From IMG/VR virus record IMGVR_UViG_3300048850_000064, positions 1-39,742 of that record: 39,742 nucleotides of DNA; one strand, 5' to 3'. Under the pieces are notes generated by a model. It was not told the origin of the DNA, made no database searches, and saw only the letters and a program-made list of their open reading frames with translations. The translations under genes and the position numbers were made by a program. Of this stretch, positions 20,786 through 32,041 are shown one piece after another (the first letter of the stretch is position 1; each line of letters starts with the position of its first letter). This stretch comes from a virus (lineage: Duplodnaviria > Heunggongvirae > Uroviricota > Caudoviricetes).

Positions 20786-21073
20786 ATGAATTACGAGCAG
20801 CGCCCGCGCACCTTCGACCTTACCAGGCGTGACCGCGAGAAGCAGAAGATGGGCGGCTTGCGCCCGCGCAAGCCGAAAGAAAAGCGCTGGTCGCATCAGG
20901 ACGATCTCGAGGCCCTGAAGGGCAAGGGCATCATCCTCAATCTCAATGACGGCAGCAGCTATACCGGCATTCTCATCGACGCGGATCAGTTCACTTTGAA
21001 GATCCAGGTCGAGAACGTGTCTTCTGCTATCACTGTTTTCAAGTCAGTAATGACTGACTACAGGGGAAACTGA
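20786..21073 (+). CDS. Hfq/Sm-like RNA-binding protein with a basic N-terminal arm
   Basis: SHQDDLEALKGKGIILNLNDGSSYTGILIDADQFTLKI...TVFKSVM aligns by eye with E. coli Hfq [41 protein letters not shown]...MVYKHAI. Confidence 0.6.
   Translation: MNYEQRPRTFDLTRRDREKQKMGGLRPRKPKEKRWSHQDDLEALKGKGIILNLNDGSSYTGILIDADQFTLKIQVENVSSAITVFKSVMTDYRGN
21025..21059 (+). promoter_or_regulatory. Operator and possible -10 embedded in the 3' end of the Hfq-like gene, upstream of the helicase
   Basis: TGCTATCAC (21025-21033), then AGTCA-GTAA-TGACT-GACT (21042-21059), in an AT-rich codon patch. Confidence 0.6.
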
Positions 21074-23694: not shown

Positions 23695-24222
23695 ATGAGC
23701 GCTTATCCGATGACCGTTCAGAAGGTCTATCTGGAGCATGTGGGCGGAACCAAGTTTTACGCCCTGACACTGATTTTCAACAGCAACGACAAGGCGCTTT
23801 TCATTCGGCGCTGGGGTCGCAAGGGCGTCTTCGGCGACATGATCGTCGAGGAGCACAACACCCACAAGGCCGGCGTCGCCGCCTACGAGAAGCTGCTGCG
23901 CGAAAAGAGCAGCGGCCGCAAGGGCTACGAGGTCAAGAGCGAAGGTCAGGACGACGTTCATGACGGCGTCGACGAGCTGCGGCGCGTCGTCGGTCTGGCC
24001 CAGTGGGCGAAGCTGTCGCCCAAGGCCCTCAAGCATATCGATCCGGCGATCGACACGACCGGCGTGCGCGAGCCCGATCCGCCGCGGTTCGATGAGAACG
24101 GCGACTATCTCGGCGAGGCGCCGGTGCGCAAGGTCGAGATCACCGAGGAGATGGTCGAGGCCGACAAGCGCGCCCGCATGGAGAGCGCCTACAGCTCCAA
24201 CCCGAAGTTCGGCATGTTCTGA
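23695..24222 (+). CDS. WGR-domain protein
   Basis: ATG 23695 after AAGGA. GTKFY.L.......F.RRWGRKG..G......A..AYEKLLREK...KGY is the WGR pattern. Ends YSSNPKFGMF. Confidence 0.75.
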   Translation: MSAYPMTVQKVYLEHVGGTKFYALTLIFNSNDKALFIRRWGRKGVFGDMIVEEHNTHKAGVAAYEKLLREKSSGRKGYEVKSEGQDDVHDGVDELRRVVGLAQWAKLSPKALKHIDPAIDTTGVREPDPPRFDENGDYLGEAPVRKVEITEEMVEADKRARMESAYSSNPKFGMF

Positions 24223-24503
24223 TGGACGAACTCCTCAGATCGTTACGCGGGGAGGCGCATAATCTCGAGGGAAGTGAGGTGACTGTCTGGCTTTCCAAGA
24301 GGTCGGCCGAGCTCGCATCGCATCCCGATCTCGACGCGATTTCCACGATCCTCGAGGATATCGGGACCATCGAACACGGACCCCACCAGGTCCGCGTGGT
24401 CAGCGCCCGCGTTCGCACCGTGATCCGACGTGCTCTTGCCCGGCGTGATGTCGAGCGGCGCGAGCGGCTCTACGAAAACAACTCAAAATACGGAATGTTC
24501 TGA
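24222..24503 (+). CDS. Hypothetical protein with shared C-terminal motif
   Basis: TGATG-coupled on both sides. Ends YENNSKYGMF. Confidence 0.65.
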   Translation: MDELLRSLRGEAHNLEGSEVTVWLSKRSAELASHPDLDAISTILEDIGTIEHGPHQVRVVSARVRTVIRRALARRDVERRERLYENNSKYGMF

Positions 24504-25075
24504 TGGCACAGGTTTCGTTTCAGAAGCGGGTGACGCTGTCCTACCGCAACAAGTTCACATTCACCTGCCCGATCTTCAATTCGAAGACGGAGATGGGCGC
24601 CTGCATGAAGCTGCGCGATCTCGTCTGGGCCGGCGCACAGGTCGACGTCCGGCGCGGCTGCCAGGCGGCTATGGGCTGCAGCATGTGCCCGGTCGCGGCA
24701 CTGGTCTCCATGCACATCTACAACAACAACTGGGACAATGACTTCCACGGTTCGATCGAGCCGAAGGAAGGCAAGCTGCACGCCCAGGTGCTCGATCGCG
24801 TCGCCCGCGTCATTCCGCGCGAGGACATCGTCAAGAAGCTCGGCCTGTCCGAGACCGAGCACAGTCTTCTCTATTCGGCGCGCGAACGCATTGCCGAGCA
24901 GCTCAAGACCGCTCCGGGCGAGAAGCCGAAAGCCGCATCCGATTACGAGGCGCCGGCGCGCGCATCCAAGCCCAAGCCGAAGAAGTCGGCGGCTCCCGCG
25001 CCAAAGACCGAAGACGCAGTCGCGACCGCAGCCAAGAGCGGCGATCTCGCCGCTGCAATCAACGCCGCAGCATAA
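24503..25075 (+). CDS. Hypothetical Cys-containing protein with a Lys/Ala/Pro-rich tail
   Basis: TCP...AC...GCQAAMGCSMCP (possible metal site). TGATG-coupled. Confidence 0.65.
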   Translation: MAQVSFQKRVTLSYRNKFTFTCPIFNSKTEMGACMKLRDLVWAGAQVDVRRGCQAAMGCSMCPVAALVSMHIYNNNWDNDFHGSIEPKEGKLHAQVLDRVARVIPREDIVKKLGLSETEHSLLYSARERIAEQLKTAPGEKPKAASDYEAPARASKPKPKKSAAPAPKTEDAVATAAKSGDLAAAINAAA

Positions 25076-25087
25076 CAAGGAGACAAA

Positions 25088-26470
25088 ATGCTGAGATTGA
25101 TCGAGGAGATCGCGGCCGAGTCCGGCCGCCTGGAAAAAGAAAAGCTGCTCGCCGAGCTCGCGGCGACGGACGAAGGCAAGTTCGTCCTCAAATGGACCTA
25201 CGACCCGTTCATCACCTATGGCGTCACGCCACCTCGCCAGCCTGGCACCGGTAAGTTCGAGTTCCGGCCGAGCCTGGTCAAGCCGCTGCTCGAGAAGCTC
25301 GCCGCGCGCAAGCTCACCGGCAATGCGGCGCAGGCCGAGATCGCCGAATGCATGAACGTGCTGAACGAGCGCGGCGCCGAGCTGCTCTGGCGCATCCTGT
25401 CGAAGGATCTCAAATGCGGCATTGGTGACGTGACGATCAAGAAGATGGCGCCGGGCCTGGTGCCGACCTTCTCGGTCATGCGCGCCCACAAGTTCGAGGA
25501 GAAGCGGATCAAGAAATGGCCGCAGATCGTCGAGCCGAAGCTCGACGGCTACCGCTTCACCTTCCTCTGTCGCGGCGGGCACGGTGGCTTCTTCTCGCGC
25601 TCGGGTATCCGTCAGCCGGCCGCCGACCACCTGGTCGAGCCGATGATCGCGACTGCCTTCAAGGCGGCGCATGGCAGCGAGGCGATTTGCGAGACGCTCG
25701 CCGAGATGAAATCGTTCAACGATGACCGCGCCAACCTCAATTTCATGGCCGACGGCGAAATGCTGATGGACGGTCACTTCAACGAGAACGGTGCGCTCCG
25801 GCGTCAGGACGAGCAGGCCGAGGGTGCGAAGTTCCATATCTTCGACCTGATGCCCTATGCCGACTTCGACGCCGTCGGCTCTGTCGGCCGACCCTATATG
25901 GAGCGGCGCACGCTTGTCGAGGAATTCGTCAAGCACGCAGCGACCCCGGAGATCACCAAGACGCCGCGCTATTTCGCCAATTCGTTCGAGGACATTCACA
26001 ATCTCTACGGCATGTTCCGCGAGCGCGGCCTCGAGGGCGCGATGGTCAAGAACCCCGAGGGCCTCTACGACAAGAAGAAGTCCTATGGCTGGCTCAAGAT
26101 CAAGGCCGAGGAAAGCGAGGATCTGCCGATCGTCGGAGCCTATCCCGGCGAGCCGAATACCAAATACGAACACTGCCTCGGCGGAGCTATTGTCAGGCGG
26201 CCCAACGGCGTCGAGGTGCGCGTAGGCGGTGGCTGGAGCGATCAGCAGCGCGAGGAGGTGTGGAAGGCCTATCAGGAGGATCTGGCCGAGCTCGAGCGCA
26301 ACGGCGCTACGCTCGAAGATCCGAGTTTCGATGGCCGGCCGCGCTTCCTGCTTCGCATGATCGAGGTGCTCTATCACGAGGAAACGCCCGACGGCTCGCT
26401 GCGTCACCCGCGCTTCAAGTGCTTCCGCGACGACAAAGCCGGGGAGGTCGAAGAAAAAGTTGCTGCCTGA
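25088..26470 (+). CDS. ATP-dependent DNA ligase
   Basis: Motif I EPKLDGYR, III ADGEM, IIIa FHIFD, IV EGAMVK, V WLKIK, VI LRHPRF. AGGAG RBS. Confidence 0.95.
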   Translation: MLRLIEEIAAESGRLEKEKLLAELAATDEGKFVLKWTYDPFITYGVTPPRQPGTGKFEFRPSLVKPLLEKLAARKLTGNAAQAEIAECMNVLNERGAELLWRILSKDLKCGIGDVTIKKMAPGLVPTFSVMRAHKFEEKRIKKWPQIVEPKLDGYRFTFLCRGGHGGFFSRSGIRQPAADHLVEPMIATAFKAAHGSEAICETLAEMKSFNDDRANLNFMADGEMLMDGHFNENGALRRQDEQAEGAKFHIFDLMPYADFDAVGSVGRPYMERRTLVEEFVKHAATPEITKTPRYFANSFEDIHNLYGMFRERGLEGAMVKNPEGLYDKKKSYGWLKIKAEESEDLPIVGAYPGEPNTKYEHCLGGAIVRRPNGVEVRVGGGWSDQQREEVWKAYQEDLAELERNGATLEDPSFDGRPRFLLRMIEVLYHEETPDGSLRHPRFKCFRDDKAGEVEEKVAA

Positions 26471-26475
26471 CGTGA

Positions 26476-26500
26476 TCAGTGATCACTGAATTGCTATAAT
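26476..26500 (+). promoter_or_regulatory. Extended -10 promoter with an operator-like palindrome
   Basis: Perfect palindrome TCAGTGATCACTGA (26476-26489), then TG-C-TATAAT (26492-26500), just after the ligase stop. Confidence 0.6.
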
Positions 26501-26506
26501 ACCCAC

Positions 26507-26595
26507 ATCTCCGGATCCCTGACGACTTGGGTCAAAGTCGCTTTCTTGTGTCTCTCTCAAAGGTCGCCCCTAATCCCTGGGCGACCTTTTTTTTT
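26507..26595 (+). ncRNA. Predicted trans-acting small RNA (~90 nt)
   Basis: Bounded by the TATAAT promoter and a strong intrinsic terminator. Internal hairpin CGACTT/AAGTCG (26523-26540) and a single-stranded pyrimidine tract at 26541-26558. No ORF. The start site is inferred from -10 spacing. Confidence 0.55.
26559..26595 (+). terminator. Intrinsic terminator
   Basis: AAAGGTCGCCC/GGGCGACCTTT 11-bp stem, 9-nt loop, T9 run. Abuts the repC stop on the other strand. Confidence 0.85.
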
Positions 26596-27697
26596 AATGC
26601 GCTCGTCGCCGGCGCAGCGCGCGGATCTCCTCGACGAGCTCGATCCGGCCATCGCCGACCATCCGGGCATAGGTCCGGAAGTAGCCGCCGAAATTGCGGA
26701 TCTTCTTGCCGCCGTCGTCGTCATAGGCCTGCAGCACCAGGAAGAAGGCCACGGCAGCCGCGACCGGCCCCAGTTTCTCGCAAGCCTCGCTCCAGGCGCT
26801 TTCATGCGTGCCATAGGTGCCGCGCAACCGTCCGGCCGCTCGCACCAGGTCGCGACTATTCTCGACCTCGCCGGCAAGCGCGAAGGCGTCAGGGCAAGCC
26901 GCGGCCAGGTCGATCAGGTTGGGCACGGCCGGTGCCTCACCATTATCTCGCGGCCCTTTGTTACAAGACTGGTCAGGTGAATCGTTGTTGTTCTCTTTGA
27001 GGGGGCAATTCTTGCCGGCACAGGCGGCTTTATATCTTTCTTCGGCTTGCGCTTTGAGAGCTTGCCAGCGGGCCAGGGATGCGTCAGGAGCGACGTTTGC
27101 GTTGCGCCGCGGTGTCTGGCCCTGCTCGGCCTCGAATGCGCTCTCGAGGTCGTCTGCCGGCGCCTCCCATTCCTGGATCGCCAGGATCAGCTCCCTGACC
27201 GATCGCCGGCAGATGGTGATCTCGTCGAAGAGGTGCTCGATCGCCTCGCGCCTGACCTTCAGCCGCTCGACCAGCGCTCCGAACTCGGCCTTCCGGGCGA
27301 CGATCGGGGAGAGGTCGAGGCCATAGGCGTCGATGATCTGGCCGCTCCGCGCGCGCCGGGCGTAGCGCTTGCCATTTGGCGAGTCCTTCGACGTGACGAC
27401 GCCGCGGTCGATCAGTCCTTTGATCGCATAGCGGATCGTCCGCTCGGAAAGACCGGTGCGCTCCATCAGGAACTCGTTCGAAGGCCAGACCAGCAACCGG
27501 CCCTGGATCGGTTCGCCCTGGTAGCAGCCGACGAGCTGGTCGAGGACGAAGCGCAGCGCCGGCTTCAGCGCCAGTGCCTGCACCGCGAGCCGACCGGCCG
27601 CAAACAGCTCGTTACGACTGACCTCGTCCGGCGCCTGGGCAACAAGCGCTATTGCCGGCGAAATCTTTCGCCAGCCAGTGTTCTCATGAGTTTGCAC
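26594..27697 (-). CDS. repC: RepC-family plasmid replication initiator
   Basis: WPSN..L..R.GLSERT.R..I..L...G.....DSPNGKRYARR...G.I..AYG.DL.PI..R..EF is the hallmark RepC N-terminal domain. C-terminal ACPD and I.NFGGY.R motifs. GTG start with a GGGGA RBS. Confidence 0.88.
   Translation of the reverse strand: MQTHENTGWRKISPAIALVAQAPDEVSRNELFAAGRLAVQALALKPALRFVLDQLVGCYQGEPIQGRLLVWPSNEFLMERTGLSERTIRYAIKGLIDRGVVTSKDSPNGKRYARRARSGQIIDAYGLDLSPIVARKAEFGALVERLKVRREAIEHLFDEITICRRSVRELILAIQEWEAPADDLESAFEAEQGQTPRRNANVAPDASLARWQALKAQAEERYKAACAGKNCPLKENNNDSPDQSCNKGPRDNGEAPAVPNLIDLAAACPDAFALAGEVENSRDLVRAAGRLRGTYGTHESAWSEACEKLGPVAAAVAFFLVLQAYDDDGGKKIRNFGGYFRTYARMVGDGRIELVEEIRALRRRRAH
26940..27050. other. 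Candidate replication origin inside repC
   Basis: AT-rich patch in the inter-domain linker of repC containing a GANTC site (26979-26983). In repABC replicons oriV lies in such a region. Boundaries are approximate. Confidence 0.4.
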
Positions 27698-27704
27698 GTC
27701 TCAA

Positions 27705-27748
27705 TCCCCAAATCGGGACAAAGCTTCGCCGTCTCTCCGCGAAGAGAG
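27705..27748 (-). promoter_or_regulatory. Structured repC leader (S-element-like)
   Basis: Hairpin TCCC/GGGA (27705-27718) pairs the repC SD. Two mutually exclusive stems: CTTCGC/GCGAAG (27724-27744) and CTCTC/GAGAG (27733-27748). Confidence 0.4.
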
Positions 27749-27777
27749 TTGACAAATCAGTGGTGATTCGGGATAAC
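27749..27777 (+). promoter_or_regulatory. ctRNA promoter, antisense to the repC leader
   Basis: TTGACA (27749-27754), 17 bp, GATAAC (27772-27777), with a GANTC site (27765-27769) in the spacer. Confidence 0.8.
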
Positions 27778-27783
27778 CAGAGT

Positions 27784-27852
27784 GCATGTAGGTGTTCCCG
27801 AACACCGAGATTTTAAACGCTCTGAGACTGCAATCTCAGAGCGTTTTGCTTT
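27784..27852 (+). ncRNA. Counter-transcribed RNA (ctRNA) controlling repC
   Basis: About 65-70 nt between the promoter and terminator, with two hairpins (GGTGTTC/GAACACC and a 13-bp terminator stem). Position, size and orientation match repABC ctRNAs. Confidence 0.75.
27815..27852 (+). terminator. ctRNA intrinsic terminator
   Basis: AAACGCTCTGAGA/TCTCAGAGCGTTT 13-bp stem, 6-nt loop, then TGCTTT. Confidence 0.8.
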
Positions 27853-27858
27853 GTCGAG

Positions 27859-28077
27859 TTACCTAAGTCCTTCGATCCAATTGTTGACAGCAACGGCGAC
27901 CAGCTCCGAACGGTTGCGAAACCGACCGGACTTCACGAACTCATCCAGTTTTGCCTTTAAGCTCTCGTCGAGCCAGATTTGCATCTGGGTCTCGCCTTTG
28001 GCTTGGCGCGATTTCCGAAACTTCTCGGCCCGCCGTTTTGCTCCACTGTCCTGAAAACTCATGACCTGTTCCAACAC
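27859..28077 (-). CDS. Ribbon-helix-helix (CopG/MetJ-like) DNA-binding protein upstream of repC
   Basis: QMQIWLDESLKAKLDEFVKSGRFRNRSELVAVAV fits the RHH pattern. The start could be the ATG at 28062. Confidence 0.65.
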   Translation of the reverse strand: MLEQVMSFQDSGAKRRAEKFRKSRQAKGETQMQIWLDESLKAKLDEFVKSGRFRNRSELVAVAVNNWIEGLR

Positions 28078-28179
28078 ACGTTGCTAGTTACGTGCCTAGT
28101 GATGACCGATTCGTCATGATTCTGGAAGCCCTACGGCGCCGCGCGTCAAAATTGCAGGGCATACACGCTTTGATTGCAA

Positions 28180-28207
28180 AAGTCGCATAAGACTACTTAT
28201 GGAACTT
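28180..28207 (+). other. dif-like XerCD recombination site (28 bp)
   Basis: AAGTCGCATAA-GACTAC-TTATGGAACTT has the 11-6-11 layout. Inner CGCATAA and TTATG are identical to E. coli dif (GGTGCGCATAA-TGTATA-TTATGTTAAAT). Confidence 0.7.
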
Positions 28208-28242
28208 TATGGTAAAGTGCTAAAATTATCGCCAGCAGATTC

Positions 28243-28281
28243 ATTCATTGTTGACTTAATATCGCCAAGTCAGTAATGAGT
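28243..28281. promoter_or_regulatory. Tandem operators upstream of the repressor candidate
   Basis: ATTCA-TTGT-TGACT (28243-28256) and AGTCA-GTAA-TGAGT (28268-28281). Confidence 0.6.
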
Positions 28282-28322
28282 GATTCCATAACTCTTTACC
28301 GGGATACGTCCCGCAGTTGCGT

Positions 28323-28358
28323 TGCTATATAGAGACACAGACGCGACACAAGACACAA
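28323..28358 (+). promoter_or_regulatory. TGCTATATA -10 and a leader with three GACACA repeats
   Basis: TGCTATATA (28323-28331), AGAGACACA (28331-28339), GACACAAGA (28345-28353), AGACACAA (28351-28358). Confidence 0.5.
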
Positions 28359-28392
28359 CGAGAGTTTACATAGGAAGGGGATTAATAAACCA

Positions 28393-28827
28393 ATGCCAAC
28401 CGTTAGGAAGCCTTACGCGGAAACCCGCGCGGCACAGTTTCTTGAAAAGCGCATCGAGCAGCTTCAGAGCCGTAAGAGCCAGCGCGAGATCGCTCAGGAC
28501 ATCGGCTTCGCTCAGCCGCAGGCACTGTCGATGATGAAGACTGGCGAGCTGAAGATCCCGCTCGACCGTGTTCCCGCTTTTGCTCGCGCCCTTGAAGTTG
28601 ATGCCGCAAACCTTTTCCGCATGGTGCTGGAACAGCATCTGCGTGGCGAGGAGCTCACCAAGACCATCAACGAGATTTTCGGCGTGGTGGTGTCCAAGAA
28701 CGAGCGTCAGTTCATCGAGCTGATCCGCAATGTGTCGAACGATACCGACCCGGCACTGACCGACAAGCTCGCAGCCGAGCTGACCACGGTGCTCCAGGAG
28801 AACCTACCCGCTACGACCGGCGCCTGA
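28393..28827 (+). CDS. XRE/Cro-CI-type HTH regulator, master repressor candidate
   Basis: SQREIAQDIGF..PQALSMMKTG..KIPLDRVPAFARALEVD HTH. Monocistronic, with its own terminator and upstream operators. Confidence 0.8.
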   Translation: MPTVRKPYAETRAAQFLEKRIEQLQSRKSQREIAQDIGFAQPQALSMMKTGELKIPLDRVPAFARALEVDAANLFRMVLEQHLRGEELTKTINEIFGVVVSKNERQFIELIRNVSNDTDPALTDKLAAELTTVLQENLPATTGA

Positions 28828-28831
28828 AGAC

Positions 28832-28874
28832 GCAAGAAAAAGCCACTGCGGGGTTGGTAGTGGCTTTTTCTTGC
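28832..28874. terminator. Bidirectional intrinsic terminator
   Basis: Perfect 16-bp inverted repeat GCAAGAAAAAGCCACT/AGTGGCTTTTTCTTGC with an 11-nt loop. Confidence 0.85.
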
Positions 28875-28882
28875 TTCTGAGG

Positions 28883-28900
28883 AGTCAGTAATTACTGACT
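28883..28900. promoter_or_regulatory. Operator (perfect 18-bp palindrome)
   Basis: AGTCAGTAATTACTGACT, flanked by GANTC sites at 28882 and 28901. Confidence 0.75.
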
Positions 28901-28951
28901 GATTCCTTAATCTTTCCATCAACACACAAAGTAAAACAATAAGGACTTGCA

Positions 28952-29167
28952 ATGACGCTGACCAAGGACAAGATCGACCGCGTAGCTGAAATCACCTACG
29001 ACGAGGCCGTAGCAGAAATCGTAAAGCTTAGTGAAGTAAAACGCCATACGGTCGGTGGAACAGAAGTGTTCGCCGGTCTGCATCCCGAGCTTGGTCCTAT
29101 CCATATTGTTTTGCCTGTAATGGGCGGAGGGATGCTGTTGTTGCCTTTTGCTATCCATAATTTTTAA
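28952..29167 (+). CDS. Small AT-rich hypothetical protein between two operators
   Basis: TAAGGA RBS, 71 aa, hydrophobic C-terminus, codon use unlike the flanking genes. Confidence 0.55.
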   Translation: MTLTKDKIDRVAEITYDEAVAEIVKLSEVKRHTVGGTEVFAGLHPELGPIHIVLPVMGGGMLLLPFAIHNF

Positions 29168-29174
29168 TGTTACT

Positions 29175-29196
29175 AGTCATTCATAACTGACTGACA
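29175..29196. promoter_or_regulatory. Operator upstream of the cobT-like gene
   Basis: AGTCA-TTCATAAC-TGACT-GACA. Confidence 0.65.
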
Positions 29197-29211
29197 CAGA
29201 GGGATAGCAAG

Positions 29212-31917
29212 ATGAAGAAGGAGATCCAGGAGCTTCGTGAGGTCATCGCGAAGCTTGTGCCGCTGTTGACGGGCAAAGGTCTGGTCGTGACCCAGCGCGG
29301 CACGAAAGCCTATGTCAGCGTCCACCGCGTCACCAAGAAGCCGGAGCGGGTCAATATTCCCAACGTCTCCGACAATGCCGACGCGGACTTCATCCGCGCC
29401 ATCCAGGGCTTCATCGACCATGAGTGCGCCCACGTCCTCTATACGGACTGGGAATCCTATCTGCTGCCCGGCGATCCGGAAGATCCGAAGATCAAGCGCC
29501 AGCAGAACATGGTCAACATCATTGAGGACACGTTCATCGAGCGCCGCATCGTAGTGGATCTACCCGGCGCCCGGCGCAACCTGTCCGACACGCGCCGATT
29601 CTTCCTCGAGCGCGTCACCGGCCCGGCACTTGCCAGCGCCGCAACACCCCAGGAACAGCTTTCTTACCTCATCGTGCCGATGATGCGTGCGCTCGCCGGC
29701 CATGAGGAAATGCAGGAGTTCATGGACAAGAACGGCTACTGGTCGCTGCCACTCATTAAGGCGCTGCGCGACAAGATGCCGGAAAAGTTGGTCAAGTCGC
29801 TGCCGGAACTGAAGCACACCCGCGAATGCGTCGCTGTCGCCCTCGAGATCGACCAGATCCTCTATCCGCCACCGCCTGCCCCGCCCGTCCTCGAGTCGGT
29901 CGATCCCGCAGAAGTCTCCACGGCCGGCAACGACAAGGTGTCGATCTATGGCGATCATCTGCGCGAAGTGCGCGAAGTCCGGATCGGCGGCAAGCGTTGC
30001 CCGCGCTGGAAGACGGTGCTGACGTCCGCGGAAGCGGCCAAGACTGGCGACCTTGCGGCCGCGCTCGGCGGTGGCAGTCATATTCTGGCGATCACGCCGA
30101 AGCTCGATCCTGGCGTCTATGACGTCGAGGTCGTCACCGACGCCGGCCGCGGCGTGCTGCCGGCCGCCTTCACCTTTGTCGAACCGCCGGCAAAGCCCGC
30201 GTCCGAAGAGGACGAGGACGGCAAGAGCGAGGACAAGCCCGACAAGAAGGCCGACGAGGGCGATGGCAAGGGCGAGCGCGACCACAGCGAAAGCGAGCCG
30301 GGCGACGAAGGTGCCGGCGCATCCAGCGATGACGCCGATGACGACGAGAGCGAAGGTGATTCCTCTGCTGACAAGGGCAAGCCTGGCAAGCCCAAGAAGG
30401 GAGACAAGGAGAAGGATGAAGGCGCCGGCGACGAAAAGGACGAGGACGATCCCGCCGCTGGGTCGGACGAATCTTCTGACGATGGCAAAACTGGAGATGA
30501 AGAGGACGACAAGGACGCCGACGACGCCGGTGCTGACGAAGATGACGCTGAATCGGGGTCTGATGAAGGCTCTGACGACGAAGACGGCGATGCGGGTGAA
30601 GATGACGTGGCTCCGGAGGCTGACGAGGACGACGAGCGCGACGGTGAAGGTGCCGGTGACGGAGAGGACGAGGACGAATCTGAGGATAGCGATGGAGCTG
30701 CTGCTTCGTCCGACGCCGCTGATGTCGATGAAGACGAGGATGACGGCGCTGGCGATGCGGGCTCGGGCGATGAGGAAGACGCCGACGAGGACGACGGCTC
30801 GGGTGATGTAGACGACGGCGAGGCCGGCGAAGACATCCAGTTCGACGATCACGACTGGGACGCCGCTTCGCTGTCGGATGACGATTCCGACGAGGAGGGC
30901 GAACCTGGCGTCGGTGGCGACAAGTCGTCAAAGTCCATGTTCGATCTGGACGACGACGCGCTCGAGGATGCGGATCTGTCGAAGGCGATCTGCGTGATCG
31001 TCACCAATGACGCGATCAATTCCATGAGCCGTTCGGACTACACGGTCTATACCCGCGAGTTCGACCGCATCGAGCACTACGACGCCCCGCCTGCTGGCGA
31101 CGCCTATATCCCTCGCCTCGAGGAAGAGGTGCGATCGATGGTCGGCAAGATGCAGAAGGACATCGAGCGCATGCTCGCCGCCCAGAGCCAGGTGATCAGG
31201 AACCCTGGTCTGCGCTCCGGCCGCCTGCACGCCCCGAATCTGCATCGGTTGATGGCCGGCGACGACCGCATCTTCTACCGCAAGGCCGAGCACAAGTCGA
31301 AGGACACGGCGGTCACGCTGATGATCGACAACTCCGGCTCGATGAACGGCGCCAAGTGCCAGACCGCGATGGTCTCCGGCTATGCGCTGTCGTCCACGCT
31401 CGATCGCTGCAACATTCCGCACGAAGTCCTCGGCTTCACGACCGGCGGGTTTGACGTGCCGAGGTCGATCTATGAAGGGATGCTGAACGAAATGCGCGAG
31501 ACCGGCATTCGCTTCAACAGGCAGATCCCGATTCACATTCCGATCTACAAGGACTTCGACGAACGGATCTCGCCTATGGTCAAGCGCCGCATCGCGACGA
31601 TGGCCTATAGCCAGGTCGGACTTGCCGGCAACATCGACGGCGAGTCCCTCGAATATGGCGCAGTCAGGCTGTTGAAGCGACGCGAGAAGCGCAAGGTTAT
31701 GATCGTCCTGTCCGACGGTCATCCGGTCGAGGCACGCGACGCCTCGGCGCACTTGAAACTGGTCGTTAAAGATCTGACGAAGATCGGCATAGAAATGATC
31801 GGCATCGGCATCAAGGATAATGCCGTCCGCTCCTTCTATCCGAAGCACGTCGTCCTCAACAACCTCAACGACCTGCCCGGTCAGGTGATGAACGAGCTCA
31901 AGGCGATTCTCGCCTGA
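29212..31917 (+). CDS. cobT: CobT-like VWA protein with HExxH domain, inserted IPT/TIG domain and acidic linker
   Basis: N-terminal DHECAH...NIIED..IE. IPT/TIG-like block at about 29884-30186. D/E-rich tract. C-terminal VWA with MIDAS DNSGS...T...LSDG. The symbol denotes the family only. Confidence 0.8.
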   Translation: MKKEIQELREVIAKLVPLLTGKGLVVTQRGTKAYVSVHRVTKKPERVNIPNVSDNADADFIRAIQGFIDHECAHVLYTDWESYLLPGDPEDPKIKRQQNMVNIIEDTFIERRIVVDLPGARRNLSDTRRFFLERVTGPALASAATPQEQLSYLIVPMMRALAGHEEMQEFMDKNGYWSLPLIKALRDKMPEKLVKSLPELKHTRECVAVALEIDQILYPPPPAPPVLESVDPAEVSTAGNDKVSIYGDHLREVREVRIGGKRCPRWKTVLTSAEAAKTGDLAAALGGGSHILAITPKLDPGVYDVEVVTDAGRGVLPAAFTFVEPPAKPASEEDEDGKSEDKPDKKADEGDGKGERDHSESEPGDEGAGASSDDADDDESEGDSSADKGKPGKPKKGDKEKDEGAGDEKDEDDPAAGSDESSDDGKTGDEEDDKDADDAGADEDDAESGSDEGSDDEDGDAGEDDVAPEADEDDERDGEGAGDGEDEDESEDSDGAAASSDAADVDEDEDDGAGDAGSGDEEDADEDDGSGDVDDGEAGEDIQFDDHDWDAASLSDDDSDEEGEPGVGGDKSSKSMFDLDDDALEDADLSKAICVIVTNDAINSMSRSDYTVYTREFDRIEHYDAPPAGDAYIPRLEEEVRSMVGKMQKDIERMLAAQSQVIRNPGLRSGRLHAPNLHRLMAGDDRIFYRKAEHKSKDTAVTLMIDNSGSMNGAKCQTAMVSGYALSSTLDRCNIPHEVLGFTTGGFDVPRSIYEGMLNEMRETGIRFNRQIPIHIPIYKDFDERISPMVKRRIATMAYSQVGLAGNIDGESLEYGAVRLLKRREKRKVMIVLSDGHPVEARDASAHLKLVVKDLTKIGIEMIGIGIKDNAVRSFYPKHVVLNNLNDLPGQVMNELKAILA
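30205..30903 (+). repeat. Low-complexity Asp/Glu-rich coding tract
   Basis: About 230 codons dominated by GAC/GAT/GAG/GAA/GGC, in frame within the cobT-like gene. Confidence 0.9.
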
Positions 31918-31934
31918 ACTTTTCCTTTTGGTAA

Positions 31935-31993
31935 GCGTCGGGTTCAGTCATTACTGACTTGCAACCCGACGCAAAAGTCAGTAATTAATGACT
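31935..31993. promoter_or_regulatory. Two operators, the first nested in a larger inverted repeat
   Basis: GCGTCGGGTT (31935-31944) and AACCCGACGC (31963-31972) enclose AGTCA-TTAC-TGACT (31946-31959). Second site AGTCA-GTAATTAA-TGACT at 31976-31993. Confidence 0.7.
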
Positions 31994-32041
31994 GTATTCG
32001 CGTTTGAGAAGCGCGATCTGAGAGAACGGAGACACAAGAGC

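Follow-up and report, generated by a model that had tools for sequence, protein, structure and literature searches.

A probable RepC replicon with a predicted antisense RNA in a tailed phage of the RHEph10/pLM21S1 phage-plasmid group

The stretch analyzed here (39,742 nt, hereafter the window) is the leading 39.7 kb of IMG/VR record IMGVR_UViG_3300048850_000064, a virus contig of 115,768 bp with a GC content of 61%. Amid the replication genes of a tailed phage, it carries a cassette composed of a small ribbon-helix-helix (RHH) gene, a predicted antisense RNA (ctRNA) and the replication initiator gene repC. We consider it probable that this cassette serves for plasmid maintenance in a phage-plasmid of the RHEph10/pLM21S1 group. 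The phage falls within a family of rhizobial phage-plasmids that is already in the literature, to which it adds a member rather than a new kind of element.

The repC cassette and its genomic setting

The two protein-coding genes of the cassette are the following.

26594–27697, minus strand: repC, replication initiator of 367 residues with a GTG start (Pfam RP-C and RP-C_C; NCBIfam RepABC_RepC)
27859–28077, minus strand: RHH (CopG-like) gene of 67–72 residues, likely ATG at 28062 (Pfam RHH_1; NikR profile match)

The repC product matches the Pfam domains RP-C (E = 8.9e-46, 156.3 bits against a cut-off of 24.4) and RP-C_C (E = 3.7e-15, 56.5 bits against a cut-off of 32.6), as well as the NCBIfam equivalog model RepABC_RepC (NF040974, 217.1 bits against a cut-off of 150). 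The open reading frame (ORF) is intact, keeps all the conserved RepC residues and is the only RP-C match across the 115.8-kb genome, that is, it is present in a single copy; a comparison of the RepC profile with solved structures gave no meaningful match. Neither repA nor repB adjoins repC, the upstream gene being that of the RHH protein, and the locus is thus a solo repC and not a repABC operon. A first-pass annotation of the same DNA had described an RHH gene, a ctRNA and repC in a minus-strand unit with no repA or repB beside them, and this description holds, the ctRNA as a prediction.

The RHH protein scores 22.5 bits against Pfam RHH_1 (cut-off 20.5), and the RHH domain with which NikR binds DNA is matched by a profile built from eight orthologues of the protein (E = 0.0018). 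A small orthologous ORF is found immediately upstream of repC in the relatives too, and the RHH gene is probably co-transcribed with repC.

The genes of the window lie almost all on the plus strand. RHH and repC are the sole minus-strand genes called in the plus-strand replication region, and the AT skew of the window changes sign at 26–28 kb only. The size of the genome agrees with the roughly 110–120 kb of the RHEph10/pLM21S1 group, and, as in that group, packaging, head and tail genes of the siphovirus type are present (terminase, portal, capsid, tail tube and tail tip). The contig ends in a 190-bp direct terminal repeat and has a CheckV completeness of 100%. No match to the tyrosine integrase (PF00589) or serine recombinase (PF00239) families, and hence no integrase or resolvase, was found in the 115.8-kb genome. 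Candidates for parAB, which the first-pass annotation had suggested looking for elsewhere on the element, are present at 93–99 kb of the genome.

Genome 93387–94043: ParA-like ATPase (CbiA match, 29.6 bits against a cut-off of 25.4)
Genome 97399–98136 and 98287–98973: two tandem ParB_N proteins, a few kb upstream of the terminase genes

These genes are about 66–71 kb distant from repC and presumably provide the partition functions of the element.

The antisense RNA, the repC leader and the candidate origin

Within the 161-bp spacer between RHH and repC, the plus strand bears a promoter followed by a small hairpin and then by a strong terminator.

27749–27777, plus strand: antisense promoter (TTGACA at 27749–27754, 17-nt spacer, GATAAC at 27772–27777)
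27784–27853, plus strand: predicted ctRNA of about 70 nt, a hairpin followed by a terminator hairpin with a U-rich tail

The small hairpin has 6 bp (27791–27806), while the terminator hairpin is a perfect 13-bp helix (27815–27846) followed by TTTTGCTTTG. The predicted 72-nt RNA has a fold energy of −27.2 kcal/mol (z = −4.3). The comparison drew on 36 related loci, taken from records of phages and plasmids and from viral contigs. In 35 of them TTGAC is found on the antisense strand about 45–62 nt (mostly about 50) upstream of the repC start, the distance being about 80 nt in the remaining one, and almost all of the 36 show a terminator-like hairpin 92–160 nt past the −35 box. Alignment of the terminator helix, which comprises 25 distinct sequences, reveals compensatory changes in all 13 pairs, with 92.9% of the cells paired. 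This level was reached by none of 500 shuffles, and a slide of the partner by one column lowered it to 60–66%. The antisense strand has 46 G-U cells, whereas the helix read on the sense strand would have only 8; this bias argues that the terminator helix is selected in the antisense transcript. In the repABC loci of pTiC58, Sinorhizobium meliloti and Xanthobacter, the elements of the antisense strand follow the same order as in the window, with CTTGAC about 67 nt upstream of repC. Taken together, the comparisons point to a true ctRNA gene at 27784–27853, the RNA itself being predicted.

On the opposite strand, the repC leader contains three elements of its own.

27704–27719, minus strand: leader hairpin with the repC ribosome-binding site (GGGGA, 7 nt ahead of the GTG) in its 3' arm (hairpin scan)
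27717–27730, minus strand: conserved leader box GGCGAAGCTTTG (alignment of related leaders)
27733–27748, minus strand: leader hairpin H2 (CTCTC/GAGAG), adjoining the antisense promoter (GTCAAC on the sense strand)

The hairpin that holds the ribosome-binding site is visible in many, not all, of 32 related leaders, with differing sequences; the literature found on the group contains no description of it. A hairpin of 5–9 bp occupies the H2 position in most of the 32 loci, built from unrelated sequences and with G-U pairs on the sense strand only. Part of the conserved box, GCTTTGTC (27717–27724), is able to pair with GACAAAGC (27848–27855) of the same mRNA, and this pairing is present in the minimum-energy fold of the leader, the whole sense leader having a fold z of −6.3. 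The long-range partners co-vary in several loci, as do GGCAAAGC and GCTTTGCC in one case and GATAAAGC and GCTTTATC in another, and in all of 5000 trials the pairs proper to each locus surpassed permuted ones; because this permutation control ignores the kinship of the sequences, the helix 27848–27855/27717–27724 is put forward as tentative. We found no description of such a long-range leader switch in the literature for these elements.

The third feature of the replicon lies within repC itself.

26938–27067 (repC gene nt 631–760): AT-rich stretch, candidate origin (base composition)

GC content falls there to 0.50, compared with 0.65 for the whole of repC, and at third codon positions to 0.50, compared with 0.79. 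The GC minimum is located at the same position of repC in nine of ten relatives. In plasmid p42d, whose RepC acts in cis, the origin resides in the AT-rich centre of repC, and replication is lost upon silent GC-raising changes at nt 658–822 (PMC3155836). Because the AT-rich dip of the window coincides with the position of the p42d origin, an internal origin is likely in this repC as well.

Beyond the cassette, the RHH gene is separated from a divergent regulator by an AT-rich region.

28078–28392: AT-rich divergent spacer between RHH and the helix-turn-helix (HTH) gene, GC 0.45
28393–28827, plus strand: HTH (XRE-like) regulator of 144 residues (weak NCBIfam HTH-type match)

The equivalent spacer has a GC content of 0.39–0.57, mostly 0.43–0.48, in the 21 loci compared. 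That of the window contains an imperfect 20-nt inverted repeat (28238–28257 and 28267–28286, core TTGACTT...AAGTCA), and palindromes with an AAGTCA core are seen in the corresponding spacer of B1VFA and of two other relatives (L050 and L058). A search for exact palindromes common to the RHH-HTH spacers returned partial AAGTCA-core motifs only and no clear shared operator; the repeat at 28238–28286 is a possible one. The HTH regulator, transcribed away from RHH-repC, has no Pfam match, and its orthologues in the same position are annotated as HTH/XRE regulators.

At the other end, repC converges with the ligase gene.

25088–26470, plus strand: ATP-dependent DNA ligase, neighbour of repC
26560–26595, both strands: hairpin with a T9 run where the ligase and repC genes converge (sequence reading; weak hairpin-type Rfam alignment)

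This hairpin is a strong terminator on the plus strand and a weaker one for repC, whose stop codon is overlapped by the T run. On the plus strand of the region from the ligase stop to the repC stop (26476–26595), a TGcTATAAT-type promoter box (26491–26500) is followed by two hairpins, the second of which (26560–26588) ends in the T9 run. The region may encode a small RNA or simply be the two-way terminator of the convergent genes.

Further along the plus strand, the HTH regulator is followed by a small ORF and by genes for a CobT-like protein, a CobS-like protein, a sigma-like protein and DnaE. In the CobT-like protein (29212–31917, plus strand, 901 residues), which has an IPT/TIG domain, the VWA domain is preceded by some 250 residues of very acidic, low-complexity sequence; the GC and AT skews both spike at 30–31 kb. 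Just before the gene of the DnaB-like helicase, a 95-residue ORF (20786–21073, plus strand) gives a weak match to the LSM/Sm domain (E = 0.0016, below the cut-off). The window has no tRNA genes.

Relatives of the element and history of the cassette

Megablast of positions 24000–32000 against phages and plasmids returned short pieces only, and the relatives were therefore found at the protein level. The nearest RepC among them is that of Shinella zoogloeoides plasmid unnamed3 (NZ_CP132310), with 54–57% identity. RepCs that are 41–48% identical are encoded by the Rhizobium phages RHEph10, RHph_N1_10, Y2_11, X66, B1VFA and V1VFA-S, by a 116-kb Pararhizobium plasmid and by pLM21S1 of Sinorhizobium sp. 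LM21. The remaining relatives are viral contigs of about 16–121 kb, many of them of 110–121 kb, and several prove to be whole contigs of isolate genomes, for example of Faunimonas and Ancylobacter. Relatives that are circular plasmids come from four cultured genera (Shinella, Pararhizobium, Sinorhizobium sp. LM21 and R. beringeri). With a complete tailed-phage genome here and near relatives that are circular plasmids and plaque-forming phages, the assignment to the phage-plasmids made by the first-pass annotation is well supported.

We found 35 distinct RepC loci flanked by ligase and/or CobT, in phages, plasmids, isolate genomes and viral contigs, with the cassette on the strand opposite to its neighbours. 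In 35 elements, with RepCs only 37–57% identical to that of the window, the genes follow one another as CobT, HTH, RHH, repC and ligase. This shared slot indicates that the cassette is ancestral to the group, having been acquired before its diversification, and is not a recent arrival. The first-pass annotation had proposed that a phage backbone acquired a rhizobial replicon: the acquisition stands, whereas the implied recency does not, in view of the same ligase-CobT slot in 35 elements and the grouping of most RepCs in one clade.

The RepC tree comprises 58 sequences and is rooted on the repABC RepCs of pTiC58, S. meliloti and Xanthobacter; pRmeGR4a is not included. All phage-plasmid RepCs, that of the window among them, fall in one subfamily (support 100/100) with the solo RepCs of Bosea, Methylobacterium and R. 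leguminosarum plasmids and with RepCs of Microvirga. As many as 32 of the 35 phage-plasmid RepCs, that of the window included, form a single clade (94/99). The solo repC genes of R. leguminosarum pRL9b2 (L069; 257 kb, conjugative) and R. beringeri pSM51_Rh08 (L017) nest deep inside this clade (100/99) and have the same antisense promoter and terminator. Their surroundings contain no phage genes and no ligase, CobT or HTH homologues nearby, and the repC of pRL9b2 adjoins a transposase. This arrangement suggests that the cassette passed from a phage-plasmid to an ordinary plasmid at least once, a reading of the direction that is weakened by the sampling of the tree, which was steered by patterns from phage-plasmid proteins. 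Our broader proposal joins two ideas and is held to be somewhat less likely than not: RHH-ctRNA-repC would be a self-contained, portable replicon exchanged between phage-plasmids and plasmids, moving in Rhizobium from phage-plasmid to conjugative plasmid, and the long-range helix of its leader would be disrupted by the antisense RNA.

RepCs of the same subfamily are also encoded by Microvirga contigs and plasmids (L019–L028 and L033), where ORFs of about 405 and about 343 residues lie directly upstream; judged by size only, these are as expected of repA and repB. The subfamily seems to occur both in repABC-like operons and in RHH-repC cassettes.

Proposed working of the replicon and comparison with known systems

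We propose that RepC is made from the RHH-repC transcript and most likely opens the AT-rich origin inside repC (about 26938–27067), acting in cis as in p42d and the octopine Ti plasmid. The RHH protein would repress the operon promoter, predicted in the AT-rich region 28078–28392, and the antisense RNA of about 70 nt (plus strand, about 27784–27853) would base-pair to the repC leader and so change the folding of its hairpin H2, its conserved box and the hairpin hiding the ribosome-binding site. Less RepC would then be produced, which would keep the copy number low and make the replicon incompatible with others of its type. For partition, the element would depend on genes situated elsewhere on it, those of the ParA-like (93387–94043) and ParB_N (97399–98973) proteins, and bulk DNA synthesis would be performed by the phage-encoded helicase, primase, DnaE and ligase. 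Such a division of labor, with RepC serving lysogeny and the phage's own replisome serving lysis, was already put forward by the first-pass annotation and we infer it here as well.

Several points weigh against this reading. Attempts to induce pLM21S1 with mitomycin C failed (PMC4447125), so that the evidence for a plasmid state and that for phage activity come from different members of the group; that the RepCs of the RHEph10/pLM21S1 group drive replication is deduced from sequence and not from experiment. The record is drawn from a virus collection, so that the element is known here from its sequence alone, and its 190-bp terminal repeat may be an assembly overlap. The ParB_N proteins, encoded next to the packaging genes, may be packaging- or nuclease-related ParB-like proteins rather than partition proteins. 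Concerning the antisense RNA, the −10 hexamer GATAAC is imperfect and the Rfam model ctRNA_p42d (RF00489) was unmatched: neither the whole window, searched at the gathering threshold, nor 26400–28450, searched at E values up to 10, yielded a ctRNA family, and the hits obtained were no better than chance. In a control, this model found the ctRNA of Xanthobacter pXAUT01 (52 bits) and missed the repABC loci of pTiC58 and S. meliloti, which indicates that it is narrow. Finally, RNAalifold predicted no consensus pairs for the sense leader as aligned by MAFFT, owing to the misalignment of hairpins that differ in length, and the leader hairpins consequently come from per-sequence scans.

Among the other explanations, the one with most in its favor holds that RepC is the general origin-binding initiator of the phage, used in lytic growth as well as, or instead of, plasmid maintenance, with an antisense RNA that only times expression. 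Indeed, no Rep_3, no lambda-O type initiator and no second RepC were found in the 115.8-kb genome, and the cassette, which lies amid the genes for replication, has been retained by all members, plaque-isolated phages included. However, few initiator families were searched, and phages of the SSU5 type may use one that goes unrecognized. Control by an antisense RNA together with a repressor is moreover what one typically finds in low-copy plasmid replicons, cultured strains carry several of the relatives as stable plasmids, and the same cassette is the replicon of ordinary Rhizobium plasmids too, all of which makes this explanation an unlikely one. That the cassette is a decaying remnant without present function, in a strictly lytic phage, would accord with the non-inducibility of pLM21S1 and with relatives known only as lytic isolates (PMC4447125). 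Yet the repC ORF is intact with all its conserved residues, synteny is kept across 35 elements at 37–57% protein identity, the RNA helices are maintained by compensatory changes and the synonymous sites of the repC centre are held AT-rich; we rejected this explanation as very improbable.

The element could also be an integrated prophage, the contig being merely an excised or misassembled form. No point in support of this was found, and it has the least credence of all. An integrase-bearing chromosomal element, which the first-pass annotation had named as the finding that would speak against a phage-plasmid, is not what the genome presents: tyrosine and serine recombinases are absent, the contig closes on itself through the 190-bp repeat with no host flanks, and the relatives are separate circular replicons. 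Integration was accordingly rejected, and the preferred reading remains that of a plasmid-maintenance replicon in a phage-plasmid.

Phage-plasmids carry genes between the worlds of phages and plasmids, and their alphaproteobacterial group has received far less attention than P1, N15 and SSU5. The record adds a distant and complete member to the rhizobial group and allows its replicon to be defined in detail, with a repressor gene, a predicted antisense RNA, a structured leader and a candidate internal origin. These parts offer handles on copy control and on incompatibility with the many rhizobial repABC and repC plasmids, and the data hint that the cassette seeded replicons on conjugative Rhizobium plasmids. 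Current views are not overturned, the basic claim having been in print since 2015.

The closest described systems are pLM21S1 and RHEph10. pLM21S1 (KM659098) was reported as a plasmid-like prophage without integrase, with a RepC-like replicon and partition genes, and was proposed together with RHEph10 as an archetype of a new group (Dziewit et al. 2015, PMC4447125); it was later called a known phage-plasmid (Pfeifer et al. 2021, PMC7969092). The novelty of a RepC phage-plasmid implied by the first-pass annotation is therefore not upheld, this kind of element having been described by Dziewit et al. Like the window element, both are of about 115–118 kb and have siphovirus structural genes, a RepC replicon, partition genes and cobT/cobS but no integrase, and they share the gene order primase, WGR, ligase, repC, small ORF, HTH, CobT. 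They differ in having RepCs only 44–47% identical and almost no similarity at the DNA level; the published descriptions of them that we found make no mention of an RHH gene, an antisense RNA or an origin inside repC. The Shinella element NZ_CP132310 (117,457 bp, circular, from a cultured strain) has a ligase 60% and a CobT 58% identical to those of the window element and about 25 genes in shared order, but is annotated simply as a plasmid and has diverged at the genus level or deeper. B1VFA and V1VFA-S, for which parA, parB and repC were reported (Gunathilake et al. 2025, PMC12509600), form with RHph_X66 and plasmid pRlX6 a set of siphophages of 118–122 kb that encode parA, parB, repC and a DNA-binding regulator and were proposed to be prophage-plasmids (PMC12509600). 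They have the same RHH-repC slot as the window, whereas their RepC is 42% identical and B1VFA possesses physical terminal repeats of 3.6 kb.

Among plasmids, the solo-repC rhizobial family of the pRmeGR4a type has an antisense RNA upstream of repC that controls repC and determines incompatibility, according to PMC10194956, which cites Izquierdo et al. 2005. Rhizobial plasmids with repC and a ctRNA but without repAB, as asserted by the first-pass annotation, are thus an established family. As described, these replicons resemble that of the window in their solo repC and in the antisense RNA predicted here, and differ in that the latter replicon is carried by a tailed phage. The repABC operons of p42d and pTiC58 have an initiator of the same family with the same AT-rich repC centre and, on the antisense strand, the same succession of ribosome-binding-site hairpin, small hairpin, TTGAC and terminator with a CCTTTT..TTTGC tail. 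In contrast, the window has the RHH gene in the place of repA and repB, its RepC is only 28–31% identical to theirs and RF00489 is unmatched. The copG-repB unit of pMV158 also places a small RHH gene before the initiator and is controlled by the RHH repressor plus the counter-transcribed antisense RNA II. The analogy with the window is one of control logic only, as the initiator is unrelated, replication is of the rolling-circle type and the host is Gram-positive.

The phage backbone itself is homologous to, and collinear with, that of the SSU5/pHCM2-type phage-plasmids, from terminase to tail and on through helicase, primase, ligase, CobT, CobS and DnaE, with identities of 24–56% overall. Comparison with positions 1–50000 of SSU5, the only part compared, gave 36 ORF matches at E < 1e-5, several of them opposite-strand shadows, which correspond to about 25 distinct genes in the same order. 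Identities reach 56% for the large terminase, 52% for the portal, 45% for the major capsid protein, 48% for the tail tube and 23–35% for the tail proteins; they are 37% for the helicase, 38% for the primase, 29% for the ligase, 37% for both CobT and CobS and 36% for DnaE. No match to repC was found in this part of SSU5, and the SSU5-like backbone with a different initiator, described in the first-pass annotation, is confirmed to that extent. Where the window has its RHH-repC cassette, SSU5 carries between primase and ligase the unrelated minus-strand gene SSU5_041, which gave no match in a Pfam search, and its hosts are enterobacterial.

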